Positions 348 to 48,100 of a stretch of 64,000 nucleotides of DNA are shown one piece after another; position 1 is the first letter of the stretch, and each line of letters begins with the position of its first letter. The notes below the pieces were generated by a model that saw only the letters and a program-made list of their open reading frames with translations, made no database searches and was not told the origin of the DNA. The DNA is from Gammaproteobacteria bacterium (GTDB lineage Bacteria; Pseudomonadota; Gammaproteobacteria; Magnimaribacterales; TMED112), in the NCBI GenBank assembly GCA_038133485.1, contig JAYPTH010000004.1, forward strand, positions 1,023-65,022. Direction: 5' to 3'. The translations under genes and the position numbers were made by a program.

Positions 348-1514
348 ATGGGTTCAGATTATTTATCAAATAAAACTAGAGGTTTTTTACCAAATGAGGA
401 TCCTTTAAGATCTGTAAAAAACTCATCTCAGGCTACTAATCTAATCGCTAACATTTCATCAGAACTACCAAAACTTCTACTAACTAATAAAATTCGACCA
501 ACGATTGATAAATTGGATAAAGATGAGCTTTCGTTCAGTCTGGATGATTATGATCAAGCCGATTTAAATCTTTTATTTGCTCAATTATCCTTTGTTTCCC
601 ATGCTTATGTTTGGGGTGATCTGAAACCAACTAAAACCCTGCCTGCCTGTATTGCTAAACCTTGGGTCAGTCTAGCTGAGCACTTTGACCGCCCTCCTAT
701 ATTGAGTTATGCATCTTATTGTTTACATAATTGGTACAAAATTGATAGTAAAGAAGATATATCTCTCGACAATGTTGCTTTGATCAATAATTTCCTAGGA
801 GGAATAGATGAAGATTGGTTCGTAACAATTCATGTTTGTATTGAAAACGCAGCTAGTCCAGCCATTGGAGCTGCTGCCAATATTGTTAAAAATAAACTTT
901 GGGCAAATGAAGATCTGCTAATAGAGCAACTTAAAATTATTAATGCTTCGATGAATGAAGTTAATAAAATCTTTAGGTTGATGCCCGATAAATGTGATCC
1001 TTATATTTATTATCACCGGGTGCGTCCGTATATTTTTGGCTGGAAGAACAATCCAGATTTACCGGAAGGATTAATTTACGAGGGCTCTTATAACAATCAA
1101 CCACAACTCTTTAGAGGGGAGACTGGGGCTCAAAGCTCAATCATTCCAACATTGGATGCATTATTTTCAGTTCACCACGAAAGAGATGAGTTAAGAGATT
1201 ATTTAGATGAAATGAAGCTATATATGCCAAAAGAACATAGAGATTTTATTGAAATAATTGCTTCAGAAACAAAAGTAAAAGAAGCCATTAAAGAAAACCA
1301 AAAGTTAAGCGACCTTGTAAATTTATGTTTAGATGAAATGTCACAATTTAGATCGCAACATCTTCAATACGCGGCTGATTATATACACAAGCAAAGTGTA
1401 AAGACCACTTTATTTGGCACAGGAGGCTCCACAGTAAGAGGCACGGGCGGCACTCCATTTATGAAATATCTTAAGAAGCACCGAGACGAAACAGATAAAT
1501 CAAAACAATCATAA
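348..1514 (+). CDS. Indoleamine 2,3-dioxygenase family heme enzyme
   Basis: IDO-family motifs HAYVWG, RPPILSYA, EDWFVTIHV, YHRVRPY, GETGAQSS, YMPKEHR, FRSQH, GTGGT. Confidence 0.85.
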   Translation: MGSDYLSNKTRGFLPNEDPLRSVKNSSQATNLIANISSELPKLLLTNKIRPTIDKLDKDELSFSLDDYDQADLNLLFAQLSFVSHAYVWGDLKPTKTLPACIAKPWVSLAEHFDRPPILSYASYCLHNWYKIDSKEDISLDNVALINNFLGGIDEDWFVTIHVCIENAASPAIGAAANIVKNKLWANEDLLIEQLKIINASMNEVNKIFRLMPDKCDPYIYYHRVRPYIFGWKNNPDLPEGLIYEGSYNNQPQLFRGETGAQSSIIPTLDALFSVHHERDELRDYLDEMKLYMPKEHRDFIEIIASETKVKEAIKENQKLSDLVNLCLDEMSQFRSQHLQYAADYIHKQSVKTTLFGTGGSTVRGTGGTPFMKYLKKHRDETDKSKQS

Positions 1515-12841: not shown

Positions 12842-13066
12842 TACCTCGCGGTAACAGACTGAAAAGGGAACTGCAGAACCCAAACCAGAAAGAAACCACA
12901 GGCAGAGAACAGAAAGGTGAAAGTTCAAGCAAGCTTAGCCGGCAAACAAGCAAACTTGACCACCAAGGATAAAAGAGATCTTATCCAAGGATGCAAAAGA
13001 TAATCTCACTTTTGACACCTACTGATCTCGAACTTAAAGAAAACTGAGCTTGCTCAGTTTTTTTTT
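12842..13066 (+). ncRNA. Structured non-coding RNA, ~225 nt, family unassigned
   Basis: Flanked by a promoter and an intrinsic terminator; five nested helical regions found by eye with A-rich unpaired segments; no credible ORF. Confidence 0.8.
13040..13066 (+). terminator. Rho-independent terminator
   Basis: Inverted repeat AAAACTGAG-CTTG-CTCAGTTTT running into a 9-T tract. Confidence 0.9.
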
Positions 13067-43802: not shown

Positions 43803-44660
43803 TTATTTAGATTTTTCCATATTGGAGAAGAATACACCAATTAAAATTAATACGGCGCCAGCAATAAGCGTTTTAGTTATAACTTCATCTAAAAATACAA
43901 TTCCTAAAGTAATGCTTGATAATGGAACAAAGTAAGTAACATAAGAAGCATTGATAGGCCCTATTCTTTTAATTAGCTTAATAAATATTACATAAGCTAA
44001 TGAAGTATTAATAATCCCAAGGAGCGCTAAATAAAGCCAAGAAGTTGAGGAAATTTGATTAAGTGTTGAGGTGTAATTTAGTAAAAATGGCAACATGATT
44101 ATGGCACCAACAATGATAGAACCCATGCCGATAAATGAATTACTTAACTTGTCTGGTGTTTTAGCTAAATATATACCTGCAACTGCATAAGACATAGAAG
44201 CAACTATACATAAGATACCAGAGAATGTGTCTAAAGCACTAGACGGCCCTACTAAAACAAACAAACCGATAAAACCTAATAGCACTCCTGCTAATTTTTT
44301 ATAGGAGAATTCATTTCTATAAAGAGAAAATAATAATAACGCAGTCAAAATTGGTACAGTTGCTTGCAATATTGATAAAGATCCAGCACCAAGTTTTAGA
44401 GATGCATAAGAAAATAAAGTAAAGGGTAAGGCTGTATTTAGTATGCCTATTAATACAAAAGAAAATCCATGATCATGAAATGAATATTTTTTCATTTTAT
44501 TTAAAAAGAATGGCAAGATAAAAATTGCTGCAAGCTGCATCCTAATTGAAACAATCTGTAATGGTTCTAGGCCGTCAAGCACTAACAGACGAACAAATAA
44601 AAATGATCCGCCCCATAAAATGGATACAAGTACTAAAATTAAGAAATCTCTGGTGTTCAT
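43803..44660 (-). CDS. DMT/EamA family transporter
   Basis: About ten TM helices; LWGGSF, LGAG..SILQATVP, LIKRIGP, LGIVFLDE. Confidence 0.92.
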   Translation of the reverse strand: MNTRDFLILVLVSILWGGSFLFVRLLVLDGLEPLQIVSIRMQLAAIFILPFFLNKMKKYSFHDHGFSFVLIGILNTALPFTLFSYASLKLGAGSLSILQATVPILTALLLFSLYRNEFSYKKLAGVLLGFIGLFVLVGPSSALDTFSGILCIVASMSYAVAGIYLAKTPDKLSNSFIGMGSIIVGAIIMLPFLLNYTSTLNQISSTSWLYLALLGIINTSLAYVIFIKLIKRIGPINASYVTYFVPLSSITLGIVFLDEVITKTLIAGAVLILIGVFFSNMEKSK

Positions 44661-44662
44661 GC

Positions 44663-44692
44663 AAAAAAAAGCCCCTTAGTGTATAAGAGGCT
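44663..44692 (-). terminator. Rho-independent terminator
   Basis: Minus strand AGCCTCTTA-TACAC-TAAGGGGCT then a U run; the stem contains a G.U pair that works only on the minus strand. Confidence 0.85.
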
Positions 44693-44853
44693 ATTCCATA
44701 AGTAAATATTATGGTCGGATTGGATTAAGTTATTGTCAGTAACTACCTCCCAATAATCCTAAGTTGTTATATATACTAATTTGGATCACCTCCTTATGCA
44801 GAGAATTAATCTAACACGTTGTACTCCTCTGGTTTAGCAGAACGTGCGACTCT
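44663..44853 (-). ncRNA. Putative ~190-nt sRNA or leader RNA with a 16-nt complement of the 16S rRNA 3' end
   Basis: Hairpins GCACGTT/AACGTGT, GGATTA/TAATCC with AGTTA/TAACT, CCATAA/TTATGG, then a terminator; TAAGGAGGTGATCCAA at 44796-44781. 5' end inferred from a TAATAT -10-like hexamer. Confidence 0.65.
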
Positions 44854-44880
44854 AAATCAATATTAATTTAATTATTAAAT

Positions 44881-45045
44881 TTAGAAAAGAGATTTTTGTA
44901 TTAAAGAATCATCTTTGGCTGACTGCAATAAACAGATGAATTCTTTAGCTTGATCAAGATTATTTGAAAAATATTGAAAGGCAATTTTTTTAATTGCCAT
45001 TTCATCAATTGGGTCTTTTAAAAAATAATTTGTTAGTTCTTTCAT
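44881..45045 (-). CDS. 54-aa hypothetical SOS-regulated microprotein (absent from the ORF track)
   Basis: MKELTNYFLKDPIDEMAIKKIAFQYFSNNLDQAKEFICLLQSAKDDSLIQKSLF*; fills the gap exactly and starts at the LexA box. Confidence 0.7.
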   Translation of the reverse strand: MKELTNYFLKDPIDEMAIKKIAFQYFSNNLDQAKEFICLLQSAKDDSLIQKSLF

Positions 45046-45064
45046 ACTGTATAAGTATACAGTA
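45045..45064. promoter_or_regulatory. LexA (SOS) box
   Basis: TACTGTATAAGTATACAGTA = CTGT-N8-ACAG, 18/20 to the E. coli consensus TACTGTATATATATACAGTA; overlaps two minus-strand TATACT -10 hexamers. Confidence 0.88.
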
Positions 45065-45073
45065 TATTTGGAT

Positions 45074-45102
45074 AAAAAAAAGGGGAGGTTACCCTCCCCT
45101 TT
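45074..45102 (-). terminator. Rho-independent terminator of the TonB receptor gene
   Basis: Minus strand AAAGGGGAGG-GTAA-CCTCCCCTTTTTTTT. Confidence 0.92.
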
Positions 45103-45119
45103 AAATCACGACTAAATGA

Positions 45120-48100
45120 TTAGAATCTCCAGTTAACTGCAGCAGTAACTTCTCTACCAACTAGGAATAAGTTGATCTCACGATCAAACACGTCTTCTGT
45201 GCCGTCATAATCCATTACGTTGTTAAAGATGACTCTGAATGTTAGGTCGTCTGATGCTCTATATCCAATACCAGCATCCCAAAGAGTATACCCTTTGAAC
45301 TCTGTAATTGGCTTACCATCATAACCTATGTATTCATCATCGTACTGTCTAAATGCGCTAATGACTCCACCTGATCTTGAGTTACCTGATAGGTATGCAT
45401 ACCACTTATCATAGCTGTACTCGAAAGATGTATCGTAGAACCACTCATCATTTCCGAATTCTCCTGTTGTGTCAGCAAGGTCATCTGGGTTACCACTGGC
45501 AGCATTCTTGAAGTATACCTGTTGGTATGCTCTCCATCTGACTGCTAATGAACCAAGATCTGTTGCAACGTTATCTCTAGTAACGAATGAAAGAGCTTCA
45601 GAAACTTCTGTTCTAAAGTCTGCATTCCAGATGTATGTTGCAAATTCAATTAAACCTGCGTTCACAAGACCTGCTGTCCAGCTTACGAGCTGACCATCAG
45701 CGTCTCTTGTGAAGTTATCACAATATTTATTTGGATAATCTTCGAAGTCATAACATGCAACCAAGTTATCACTTAGTGAGAATGATGTTACATAGTCTTC
45801 TAGATTAATCTTAATGTAGTCTGCTGAGAATTGTAGATCACCAAACAATACGTCTGACCACCAGCTAGGCTGATAGATAAGACCTAATGCTTCAGTGTCA
45901 GCAATTTCGTTAGAAAGATTTGGGTTACCACCCTCTAAACCTTGAACAGTAGCGTTAACACCAATACTCACAAAGTCTGGAGCCAATCCTTCAGCAAGAC
46001 AGTTTCTTTCTCTAACATCTGGTGCTCTACCTAATCCTCTGTATCTAAAGTCACATGGATCTGGTCTAGCAAATGCGTAAGAAACAACCTGCTCTAAGAA
46101 AAGGTCACCTAAGTTAGGTGCTTTAACAGCTGTTTGTTCACTAACTCTAACTGTAATGTCATCAGTAACTCTCCATGCCAAAGATGAAGCCTCAACATCA
46201 TATGTTCCAGCTAAGCTGTTATCAATATTTCTTGCTGAGAAGTCAAAGACCAATGAATCAACAAATGGCAATGTGAAATCACCACCTACTAAAGGTACGG
46301 ATACCTCAAAGTATGTAGCATCAATTTCATAGCTACCACCTACATCTTTTCTAGAAGCACTTCTTGTCAATGCATTTGGTTGAGCAGCACCTGACATGGT
46401 TGTTATTGGAGAGTAAACAGTATCACCTCTTTCAACTCTTCCTTCCCAACCTATAGCCATACCAACTGTACCGGCAGGCATTTCAAAGATGTCACCAGAC
46501 AATGAAGCGAAAGTCATTTCCTGTGAAATAACACCTTGCTGTCTAATGTCTACGCCGACGTAGTCTCTAGCTGCTTGTGATGGTGCGCCTCTACCCATTA
46601 CGTTTAGTGGAGCACAATCCCCTGGGGAACCAAGGATACTACCACCAAATAATGTATCACCATAAATTGGTGTTGGAGGACCGTATACGTAAACATAGTT
46701 TAGTGGGTTAAATGCAGGATCGTAATTCATCTTACAATCAATCTCACCTGTTGCTGGGTTTATGCCAACATCAAGTGCAGCTGCATATCTAGCACCGATA
46801 ACTGCTGGTGCACTAGAATAAATAACTGTTTCACCAAAGCTATAACCTGCTGAGTATAGGAATTCGTTATCGTCAAGTGCAAAGTTACCTTCTACACCCA
46901 TGGTAAAGAATTCAGTATCGTTTCTATTTTCAATGGTATAACCACCGTCCCCCTTTTGTAGAAGGTCAACGTGAGATTTTGAAACCCATAGGGAATCTTG
47001 GCCATTGGCTGCAATAATATCTCTTGAACCCGCTGTGAGGTAAGGGTTGTCAATACCTATGTAAATTGGTGTGTCTTGTCCTGGAGCAAACGCATATGTT
47101 GAGTATGGATAACCAGACTGGTTACCATAGTCGAATGCAAAGAATCCATTTTTATAGACATCCAAATATAGTTCTAAATTGTCAGTAATATCGTATGTTG
47201 AGAACATGCTGAAGTTTAATCTTTCAAAGCCTGCTCTGAAGGTGTCATAGTCACCTCTAAAGCCATCATCACTATCGATAGCGAAGAAAGCGTTACCATA
47301 TGGAATACCAACGTTAAATACACCTAAGTCACCTGGTCCTGTGAAGTGATAGTGATTACCATCAGGCCATAATCCATAATATGGGTTTGAAGCATATGTA
47401 GCACTAAGTGCTAGTTCTGTATAACCTGGTGATGCTCTACCTGTTTCTGGTAGGGTTGATAATGTTACACAACCATGTGGAGCAACAGTTTCGCCATTAA
47501 AGCTGCCATATCTTGCAGCATAAGGCACTGTACTACCTTTACCAATCCATTGTGATTGATATGGTGCATCAGCATTGTATGCGTTAGCTCTGAATAAGCT
47601 ACCACAATCACCTGTAGCCTTGTTGTAGTATCTATCTACGTCTCCAGTAAATACTGTACCAACTTCATCGTACTGGAAGTTAACAACAATATTACCTCTG
47701 CCGTTAGCAAAGTTACCACCCATTGCATACTGGAAGCTGATATCTGAAGAAAGACCAGCATAGTCATCATAGATTAATGAAGCATTAGCTCCTTCAAAGT
47801 CATCTTTAAGTATGTAGTTGATAACACCTGCAATAGCATCTGAACCATACACAGCAGAACCACCAGCATTAACAACTTCAACTCTATCAATCATGACAGA
47901 CGGGATGTTGTTAAGGTCAACAGCGGAACCACTAGCACCAGATCCTATCGGAGCTGTAGAACCAATAAATCTTCTACCATTTACAAGAACAAGCGTTCTA
48001 CCTGAACCTAGGCCGAAGTTGTTAGCAATAGCCTGACCCACACTAAGGTCACTCTGGTTACCAAAAGCTCCACCTGAACCCTGTGTTAGTGAGTTTGTAA

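Follow-up and report, generated by a model that had tools for sequence, protein, structure and literature searches.

A conserved, terminated RNA of SAR86 bacteria with an extended complement of the 16S rRNA 3′ end and a putative AUU-initiated mini-ORF

The DNA considered here is a stretch of 64,000 nucleotides (nt), hereafter the window, from a gammaproteobacterium of the SAR86 order (Magnimaribacterales; TMED112; assembly GCA_038133485.1, contig JAYPTH010000004.1, positions 1,023 to 65,022), and its subject is a locus on the minus strand, from about 44853 to 44663, that is predicted to encode an RNA of ~190 nt whose 5′ end is placed by a −10 box. The RNA carries a 15-nt complement of the 3′ end of the 16S ribosomal RNA (rRNA), a Shine-Dalgarno (SD) site here called SD1, followed by an AUU codon as the first of a 14-codon frame and by a UGA stop displayed in a hairpin loop, and it ends in an intrinsic terminator. 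We lean towards reading it as a stand-alone small RNA (sRNA) gene with its own promoter and terminator, the core of which is a ribosome-docking and mini-translation module, and as the SAR86 form of a wider class of "mini-mRNA" sRNAs. A previous sequence-only reading of the window had given the span as 44663-44853, which agrees with our estimated transcript, and had described a terminator with the ATG of a transporter gene 2 nt past its U-run as well as two further SD-like motifs (GAGGAG at 44829-44824 and GGGAGG at 44751-44746), all of which we recovered as claimed.

The locus and the structure of its RNA

The features of the locus are listed below in window coordinates, in the order of transcription.

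44860..44865, minus strand: predicted −10 box TAATAT, placing the transcription start at ~44853/44852
44815..44846, minus strand: hairpin P1, in which CACGTT (44846-44841) pairs with AACGTG (44820-44815)
44799..44831, minus strand: putative pseudoknot, in which the P1 loop CAGAGGA (44831-44825) pairs with TTCTCTG (44805-44799), just 5′ of SD1; holds the GAGGAG motif
44782..44796, minus strand: SD1, UAAGGAGGUGAUCCA, 15-nt complement of the clade's 16S 3′ end
44736..44780, minus strand: mini-ORF (open reading frame), with AUU at 44780-44778, 13 more codons, and UGA at 44738-44736; putative peptide ISIYNNLGLLGGSY (I at the AUU)
44746..44751, minus strand: SD2, GGGAGG, inside the mini-ORF, ending 7 nt ahead of the stop
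44717..44759, minus strand: three-tier hairpin P2, with inner stem AGTTA (44744-44740) against TAACT (44732-44728)
44739-44733, minus strand: 7-nt P2 loop, CTGACAA, displaying the UGA stop
44696..44714, minus strand: hairpin P3, CCATAA against TTATGG
44663..44692, minus strand: intrinsic terminator, stem 44692-44670 followed by a run of 8 U
43803..44660, minus strand: EamA/DMT transporter gene (Pfam EamA, E = 5e-39), its ATG 2 nt past the U-run (bases GC between) and without an SD

In an alignment of 37 SAR86 copies (A1), the −10 box is aligned, the core GGAGGTG..TC.A.ATTA.TA and a TGAC are invariant, and no sequence lacks a terminator. The box reads TAnnnT in 37/37 copies (T11 and A12 of the alignment being invariant), and in family f2 TGn and a −35 element resembling TTGGAA stand ahead of it; the TAATAT box of the window is a prediction, which a consensus promoter scan of the locus did not call. 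For the f2 promoter, inspected by eye, a Pho-box or sigma-54 reading was set aside because an extended −10 sigma-70 promoter fits better.

The structure was drawn by hand (P1, the pseudoknot, two tiers of P2, and the terminator) and scored on 12 same-genus sequences, in which 96% of the cells were paired and 11 pairs had changed on both sides. None of 500 shuffles reached this level, and slid controls were 35-50% paired. In P1, all six pairs were paired in 100% of the sequences and four of them had changed on both sides; between families, the P1 stem sequences are wholly different at the same place with their complementarity retained. Changes on both sides were also found in three of the five pairs of the inner stem of P2 and in two of the four pairs of its middle stem, and the terminator was 98.8% paired within the genus. 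Every SAR86 copy ends in such a GC hairpin and U-run, and the scan for terminator-like sites found two against 0.2 expected. P3 is present in the minimum free energy (MFE) folds of 9/9 same-genus sequences, in a register that varies by subgroup, so it was not formally counted. Support for the pseudoknot is moderate: 90.5% of its cells are paired within the genus, with a change on both sides in one of seven pairs, and across families the pairing takes the forms CAGGG:CCCTG, AAGGGG:CCCTT, CAGAG:CTCTG, and GAGAA:TTCTC (own script). SD1 (44796-44782) lies single-stranded between the pseudoknot and the AUU at 44780. RNAalifold on a MAFFT alignment of all families returned 7 pairs; the 5′ domain was misaligned between families there, and the genus alignment was therefore used. 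Judged from that alignment, the RNA has a covarying structure.

In four RNA libraries from a single study, contigs span 44400-44827 and leave 44832-45100 uncovered, with ends at 44825 and 44827, one of them running into adapter-like letters; such contigs give neither strand, ends, nor expression level, and neither a 5′ end nor silence upstream can be deduced from them. An Rfam search of the window RNA matched no family, either at the gathering cut-offs or at E <= 10.

The 16S-complementary site and the mini-ORF

The sequence TTGGATCACCTCCTTA occupies positions 44781-44796 of the plus strand, so that the minus-strand RNA carries its complement. This 16-mer matches once in the 64-kb window, even with two mismatches allowed (0.04 expected from shuffles), and its copy number in the 964-kb, 25-contig genome is 1. 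The 16S gene of the host genome is truncated at the edge of a contig (model positions 9-754 present), and the 3′ end was therefore taken from two same-genus genomes (G008 and G010), in which it reads ...GGGGCTGGATCACCTCCTTA, followed by the spacer. The minus-strand RNA complements the final 15 nt of this terminus, and its 16th base faces a C; the 16-nt perfect complement proposed from the sequence alone thus stands for 15 nt and fails at the 16th base, while the accompanying statement that there is no other rRNA sequence nearby was borne out by an Rfam scan of the window, which found no rRNA.

The complementarity of SD1 to 16S is the extreme of this genome. Its 15 contiguous nt compare with 10 for the runner-up among the 51 genome sites with at least 8, and its duplex with the 16S tail is predicted at −27.2 kcal/mol, whereas the 25-nt segments that precede 683 long ORFs reach −19.9 kcal/mol at the lowest, their median being −6.4 kcal/mol. 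The sequence AAGGAGGTGATCCAAATTAGTA is invariant in 12/12 same-genus copies, the host's own included, and SD1 varies elsewhere to GGTGGTCC and to GATCAAAA; in the former, with A changed to G, a G-U pair with the rRNA is retained. The best-supported reading is that SD1 is a selected ribosome-binding site, to which 30S subunits would bind. Elsewhere in the RNA, complementarity to rRNA was at about the level of chance by rough estimate, both for a 13-nt match with two G-U pairs between the P2 loop of the G008 copy and 16S and for G-U-rich matches of 11-15 nt to 23S, which are not kept in other copies.

The AUU lies 8 nt past GGAGG and in 42/42 distinct SAR86 copies begins the same frame of 14 codons, closed by a TGA in a hairpin loop; together, these copies encode 23 distinct peptides. 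All SAR86 copies have CAGGRG or TAGGAGG at the SD2 position, and no ORF of at least 30 amino acids beginning with ATG, GTG, or TTG was found downstream of SD1. Among the three options that the sequence-only reading had offered (a decoy that binds 30S subunits, a ribosome-controlled attenuator of the DMT gene, or the mRNA of a tiny non-ATG peptide), the last fits best, given the AUU and 14-codon frame in all 42 copies. Relatives outside SAR86, described below, have a frame of 13-15 codons in 23/23 distinct sequences, ending in TGA (11), TAG (10), or TAA (2), and in most of these lineages the two arms of a small inverted repeat flank the stop. Peptides of the other lineages (ISSKLLGTSEVGGR, ISSSRKLIGRGERES, and INRCEMTSGGARRG) share only the residues dictated by the conserved nucleotides, and because the peptide is not conserved between lineages, selection looks to act on translation or ribosome binding and not on the peptide product.

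Occurrence, genomic context, and relatives

The SAR86 set comprised 266 genomes of the order, which were searched with a pattern made from the 22-mer AAGGAGGTGATCCAAATTAGTA at <=2 mismatches. The pattern was present in 43/266 genomes from three of four families (11/29 in f1, 18/50 in f4, 13/47 in f2, and 0/139 in f3), and a reversed-pattern control returned 0; in f3, neither this search of 139 genomes nor BLAST in 10 genomes found a copy. BLAST of the 225-nt region recovered matches of 153-224 nt at 73-84% identity in 11/29 other same-genus genomes and, in the other families, the 27-nt core only. One f2 genome (G051) has two copies of the RNA, on contigs C8 and C51, with the core variants GATCC and GGTCC. 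Two matches were found in viral contigs, neither with the layout of the RNA.

The surroundings of the RNA change between families. On the minus strand of the window, a TonB-dependent receptor gene (ending at 45120), its terminator, a 54-codon ORF (45045-44881), the TAATAT box (44865-44860), and the RNA follow one another, and in 12/12 loci of the same genus (g1) the DMT gene begins 0-4 nt after the U-run. In f4, a DASS-type transporter gene precedes the RNA, and on its other side a short-chain dehydrogenase (SDR) gene runs towards it in the opposite orientation. In f2, all 10 distinct loci of the genera g5 and g13 have a gene of the same orientation 32-136 nt past the RNA; the three typed by Pfam are alkaline phosphatases (PhoA type in L016 and L020, PhoX type in L060), and six more resemble these by their N-termini alone. 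The phosphatase genes, 54-136 nt past the terminator, carry a TAAAAT box and a strong AAGGAG SD of their own, and their proximity may reflect a link of the RNA to phosphate scavenging or a hot spot of gene insertion. DMT orthologues at 70-73% identity were found in four of five other same-genus genomes searched (G012, G017, G005, and G029), none with the RNA upstream; G012 retains the order of receptor, small ORF, and DMT gene, with a ~70-nt AT-rich spacer replacing the RNA. Within this spacer (L150), the sequence ATTAGTAGTTAATCCAA looks like two stretches that lie apart in the RNA (ATTAGTA and TTAATCCAA), and it may have been left by a deletion. Contigs from the RNA libraries bridge the terminator into the DMT gene (records 4, 8, 9, and 10), by read-through transcripts or by DNA carry-over, and the DMT gene is most likely a passenger of terminator read-through in this genus. 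The region is best annotated as an sRNA gene and not as a DMT leader.

Two further elements of the window were noted. An inverted repeat of 20 nt, TACTGTATACTTATACAGTA (45045-45064, minus strand), overlaps the ATG of the 54-codon ORF and has what we take to be the form of a gammaproteobacterial LexA (SOS) box; the host genome has a gene with the LexA DNA-binding domain, and G012 keeps the box together with the N-terminal half of the small protein (YFLKDPID..IKKIAFQYF). The product had no Pfam match and is possibly an SOS-induced small protein. At 12849-13042 (plus strand), the window contains a full-length IMES-1 RNA (Rfam RF02034; 127.4 bits against a cut-off of 81), followed by a terminator-like hairpin and U-run, which places this RNA motif of marine metagenomes in a SAR86 genome. 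A SAR86 genome paper mentions an abundant non-coding RNA from metatranscriptomes (PMC3358033), which may be either IMES-1 or the RNA described here.

The host genome makes low use of SD sites: a 4-mer SD precedes 103/654 first ATGs (15.7%) and 60/621 internal ATGs (9.7%), figures that are rough in that the first-ATG rule misplaces some starts. There is a slight enrichment of G at −11 to −8 of the first ATGs, and a subset of genes has strong SDs. The infC (IF3) frame (G000:C12, ~1417-1500, minus strand; L149) has no in-frame ATG before its conserved basic N-terminus, with ATT and TTG as candidate starts and no visible SD. RMF (PF04957) and HPF/RaiA/S30AE (PF02482) were each found in 0/266 SAR86 genomes, 57 of which are at least 90% complete, while control genomes were positive; SAR86 may thus be without both classical families of hibernation factors.

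A scan of the whole collection for the core returned 61 places, 48 with the SAR86 layout, 10 from other lineages, and three resembling chance matches. By their labels, the 10 non-SAR86 records are Abditibacteriota (five), Acidimicrobiales, Kiloniellaceae, Trueperaceae, and Pseudomonadales/Gammaproteobacteria (two), and a metagenome scan added 18 more non-SAR86 copies. A 21-nt core and the layout are common to the Abditibacteriota-, Acidimicrobiales-, Trueperaceae-, and Pseudomonadales-labelled records. A second SD-like copy stands within the frame, as GGAGGTG in the Acidimicrobiia and Trueperaceae types and as GAGGTG in the Abditibacteriota type, and the Pseudomonadales-labelled type has CCTCC motifs at the place of SD2; SAR86 has 7 nt between SD2 and the stop, the other lineages 11-13 nt.

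At the Rfam gathering cut-offs, ten non-SAR86 loci had no match, and the family Ms_IGR-5 (RF02471) emerged only in more permissive searches, with scores over the whole model of 49.1 bits for L131 (cut-off 45), 42.1 for L128, 36.9 for L096, 31.5 for L143, and 26 for L144. The family CC2171 (RF01867) gave weak matches of 23.2 bits (cut-off 75) at the same place on L143 and L144. In the consensus lines printed by Rfam, Ms_IGR-5 contains AAGGAGGUGGUCC and CC2171 contains AAGGAGGUGAUCCA (14 nt common to SD1). The Ms_IGR-5 consensus opens with GGAAGGAgGugGuCc, followed by a second GAGGUGg and then CCGCuaGC, and that of CC2171 has GAAAGGAGGUGAUCCA, 14 nt identical to the SD1 of the window with GUG directly after, printed as GAAAGGAGGUGAUCCAGUG. 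Of the landmarks of Ms_IGR-5, SD1 and SD2 are present in the window, the stop loop CUGACAA differs from the CCGCUAGC hairpin, and the 3′ domains are unalignable. Judged by its printed consensus line, CC2171 is probably kin. A covariance model search for CC2171 in 111 genomes found none, and a pattern search in 401 genomes gave seven one-mismatch matches versus five for reversed-pattern controls; both are uninformative on CC2171, as the class sampled around G266 is probably not Alphaproteobacteria. That genome, a metagenome-assembled genome labelled Kiloniellaceae, bears an RNA of the Acidimicrobiia/Ms_IGR-5 type (L096) and a second, weaker Ms_IGR-5-like site of 20.7 bits, and its class sample held an Acidimicrobiales genome (G267); label and placement seem to disagree.

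Excerpts of published work describe Ms_IGR-5 as a validated, uncharacterised, NAD-capped sRNA of Mycobacterium smegmatis (bioRxiv 10.1101/2021.12.14.472595) and list it as validated by RNA-seq in Streptomyces lividans (PMC8079986); IGR-5 is also mentioned as seen in a cold-stress transcriptome. CC2171 is given as confirmed by Northern blot in Methylorubrum and is described as having neither a known condition nor a known function (bioRxiv 10.1101/2022.01.24.477521). Our full-text searches of the literature found no description of the shared extended-SD and mini-ORF core or of a function for it, which reflects the limit of those searches and is not proof of absence. The SAR86 RNA, which belongs to no Rfam family, looks like a divergent variant of a class that has been catalogued as uncharacterised sRNAs.

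Interpretation and comparison with known systems

The conservation of the RNA, its structure, its complementarity to 16S, its conserved frame with a positioned stop, and its independence of any one neighbour are the observations from which we infer ribosome binding, translation, remodelling of P2, and a mode of action that would operate through these. In the reading that we favour, the core module would comprise an SD to the last 13-15 nt of 16S, an 8-nt spacer, a weak AUU that begins a 14-codon frame, and a UGA in the loop of P2. The 30S subunits would dock very tightly on SD1, and some of them would initiate at the AUU, translate the mini-ORF, and melt P2, so that translating ribosomes would terminate in the P2 loop. 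Going by the usual spacings between SD and P site, a ribosome whose A site holds the stop could then reach SD2 with its anti-SD. The RNA would act via ribosome occupancy and remodelling and not via its peptide.

Several points weigh against this reading. A full 15-bp SD helix leaves 1-2 bases before the AUU, which in the geometry of the 30S subunit seems too few for decoding in the P site, and full pairing of SD1 and initiation are therefore probably alternatives. The AUU of the non-SAR86 relatives is present by construction, as the pattern used to fetch them contains ATTARTA; their frame and stop position are independent of it. Two of the three frame-keeping 3-nt indels sit in AGT repeats, where slippage alone gives multiples of three, and the invariant length of the SAR86 ORF could equally be accounted for by RNA structure. 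The z-score of the single-sequence fold, just −1.73, is unremarkable. As regards the wider class, neither Ms_IGR-5 nor CC2171 (75-bit cut-off) matched the window region 44500-45200 or the host genome at E <= 10. The relatives hold an internal near-copy of the anti-SD (UGGACCAUC, GACCACCUUCU, or CAUCACCUCC) that is able to base-pair with the 3′ part of SD1. The ribosome-binding site looks self-masked there, and part of the SD1 extension may be kept for intramolecular pairing; in SAR86, we found no long anti-SD partner, only a short CCCUU/CUCUG strand that is engaged in the pseudoknot. Finally, the pattern is absent from 18/29 same-genus genomes, one of them 97% complete, and the RNA is therefore dispensable.

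Other readings draw on much of the same evidence. The RNA might be an untranslated decoy or sponge, in which the 13-15-nt SD tethers 30S subunits while the AUU, disfavoured by IF3, blocks their exit by elongation, such that the pool of free subunits is lowered or their anti-SD is blocked. The strength of the SD1 duplex, unequalled in the genome, the presence of two SD-like sites in each RNA of SAR86 and of most relatives, the non-AUG starts throughout the relatives (AUU here, and possibly GUG or UUG in the CC2171 and Ms_IGR-5 consensus lines), the lack of RMF and HPF/S30AE across the order against positive controls, and the low use of SDs by genes are all consistent with it. Nevertheless, we consider it rather unlikely, in that the conserved frame and positioned stop suggest that ribosomes run through, the patchy presence of the RNA (43 of 266 genomes, none of the f3 genomes, and a minority of the same genus) fits a housekeeping role poorly, the lack of hibernation factors is common to carriers and non-carriers alike, and the contig depth in the four RNA libraries, albeit a poor measure of levels, is not above that of the next-door gene. 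A stabiliser of the STAB-SD type, in which SD1 would be a ribosome-binding "bumper" against 5′-end-dependent decay of the RNA and of read-through mRNA, with the functional part elsewhere (e.g., in the loops of P2-P4), would suit the very strong 16S complementarity, the position of SD1 ~55 nt from the predicted 5′ end, and its distance of ~120 nt from the DMT start and far from long ORFs, which recalls the cryIIIA arrangement. It has no need, however, for a conserved start at 8 nt or an in-frame stop, and conservation across phyla peaks in the segment from SD through spacer to AUU while the 3′ domains differ; as a full account it is quite improbable, and it is compatible with the explanation that we favour rather than exclusive of it.

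The DMT attenuator of the sequence-only reading, in which read-through would be set by ribosomes on the mini-ORF or by a ligand on the 5′ pseudoknot, draws support from this genus, where the DMT ATG follows the U-run so closely in all 12 loci that there is no space for a separate promoter, and where RNA-library contigs cross the terminator; the co-oriented downstream genes of the ten f2 loci, three of them typed as alkaline phosphatases, also speak for a leader. Yet no alternative pairing was found, and the terminator remained intact in 36/36 MFE folds (nine same-genus RNAs, each folded once unconstrained and once with each of three segments kept single-stranded, namely the SD/AUU, the stop region, and the whole ORF), and the stop lies ~45 nt ahead of the terminator stem, beyond the reach of a ribosome. 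The downstream genes are functionally unrelated across families, the next gene being convergent in f4 and the f2 phosphatase genes having a promoter box and SD of their own. The DMT gene persists in same-genus genomes that lack the RNA, which is therefore not a dedicated DMT attenuator, and a cis-acting leader is unlikely. A true micro-protein gene, with the 14-residue peptide (ISIxxLxG[IL]xGGxx in SAR86) as product and the RNA as its structured mRNA, would account for the frame open in all 42 copies, the recurrence of I-S-I..G..GG within SAR86, and some third-position changes that keep Gly (GGT, GGA, and GGG). Against this, the conserved Gly codons are nothing other than the SD-like GGAGG, the peptides of other lineages have in common only what the nucleotides fix, and the 5′ and 3′ domains of the RNA are under structural selection, so that we regard a functional peptide as highly improbable.

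A further-reaching proposal is that the RNA is a ribosome-parking factor: SD1 would capture an initiating 30S subunit and SD2 would hold a ribosome arrested at the loop stop, so that one RNA would immobilise one or two ribosomes via their anti-SD tails as a hibernation or titration device, in a clade whose 266 genomes yielded neither RMF nor HPF, and Ms_IGR-5, perhaps also CC2171, would do likewise in Actinobacteria and other phyla. This is doubtful; were it true, the minority of SD-led mRNAs would be selectively down-tuned, and the f2 alkaline-phosphatase mRNAs are such. If the core is indeed the functional part, it would define a conserved class of ribosome-engaging regulators that is testable in cultured species (M. 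smegmatis, Streptomyces, Caulobacter, and Methylorubrum), and it would bear on the intact anti-SD of SD-poor lineages such as this SAR86 genus.

Among well-known systems, several classes were tried and rejected. A metabolite riboswitch was discarded because no Rfam class matched and what lies downstream differs without relation (EamA, alkaline phosphatases, or no gene at all). Type I toxins are usually hydrophobic ORFs of about 19 or more residues; here, the frame has 14 codons, the peptides of relatives are charged (e.g., ISSSRKLIGRGERES), and no antisense promoter or terminator was called. A CsrA sponge of the CsrB/RsmZ type would accord with three AGGA motifs, but Pfam CsrA was not found in the host genome (89% complete). 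In prfB, an SD-like element precedes UGA-C, and the SAR86 RNA is similar in having GGAGG or GGGGG 4 nt before the last sense codon and then UGA-C; a +1 frameshift of the prfB type was rejected, as no long ORF follows the stop in any frame and the terminator comes ~70 nt on.

Other systems share single elements with the RNA. The infC gene, with its AUU start and autoregulation by IF3, has a weak AUU with a good SD, as does the SAR86 RNA. RMF blocks the anti-SD region of 16S, and an RNA pairing with the same 15 nt would occupy the site of RMF, here as RNA and not as protein. Leader-peptide attenuators (trp, his, pheL; erm, cat) likewise have a short ORF ahead of a terminator that precedes a gene, whereas the SAR86 RNA has no regulatory codon runs and no antiterminator, its stop is out of the terminator's reach, and no fixed gene lies downstream. 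The STAB-SD of the Bacillus thuringiensis cryIIIA mRNA is an extended 16S complement more than 100 nt before the start codon and probably acts through 30S binding and not by initiating translation of the gene; in the SAR86 RNA the complementarity is extended (15 nt, −27.2 kcal/mol), yet a conserved AUU at 8 nt and a conserved 14-codon frame follow, and the SAR86 element also exists as a terminated RNA without a gene behind it.

The closest likeness is to catalogued sRNAs. Ms_IGR-5, an actinobacterial sRNA first seen in M. smegmatis, is also stand-alone and terminated, and relatives with an exact match to the 21-nt core match its model. The SAR86 RNA differs in its extra 5′ hairpin and pseudoknot and in its 3′ hairpins. 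SD1 of the actinobacterial type is paired to an anti-SD copy inside the molecule, and for SD1 of SAR86 we found no partner of such length. CC2171 of Caulobacter, compared through its printed consensus, has 14 nt like SD1 and then GUG. A non-AUG mini-ORF with a stop in a loop is found in SAR86 and in the Ms_IGR-5-like groups, and the consensus lines of Ms_IGR-5 and CC2171 permit the same reading. The SAR86 RNA, actinobacterial Ms_IGR-5, and probably alphaproteobacterial CC2171 thus have in common a core that complements 13-15 nt of 16S at its universally conserved 3′ end.

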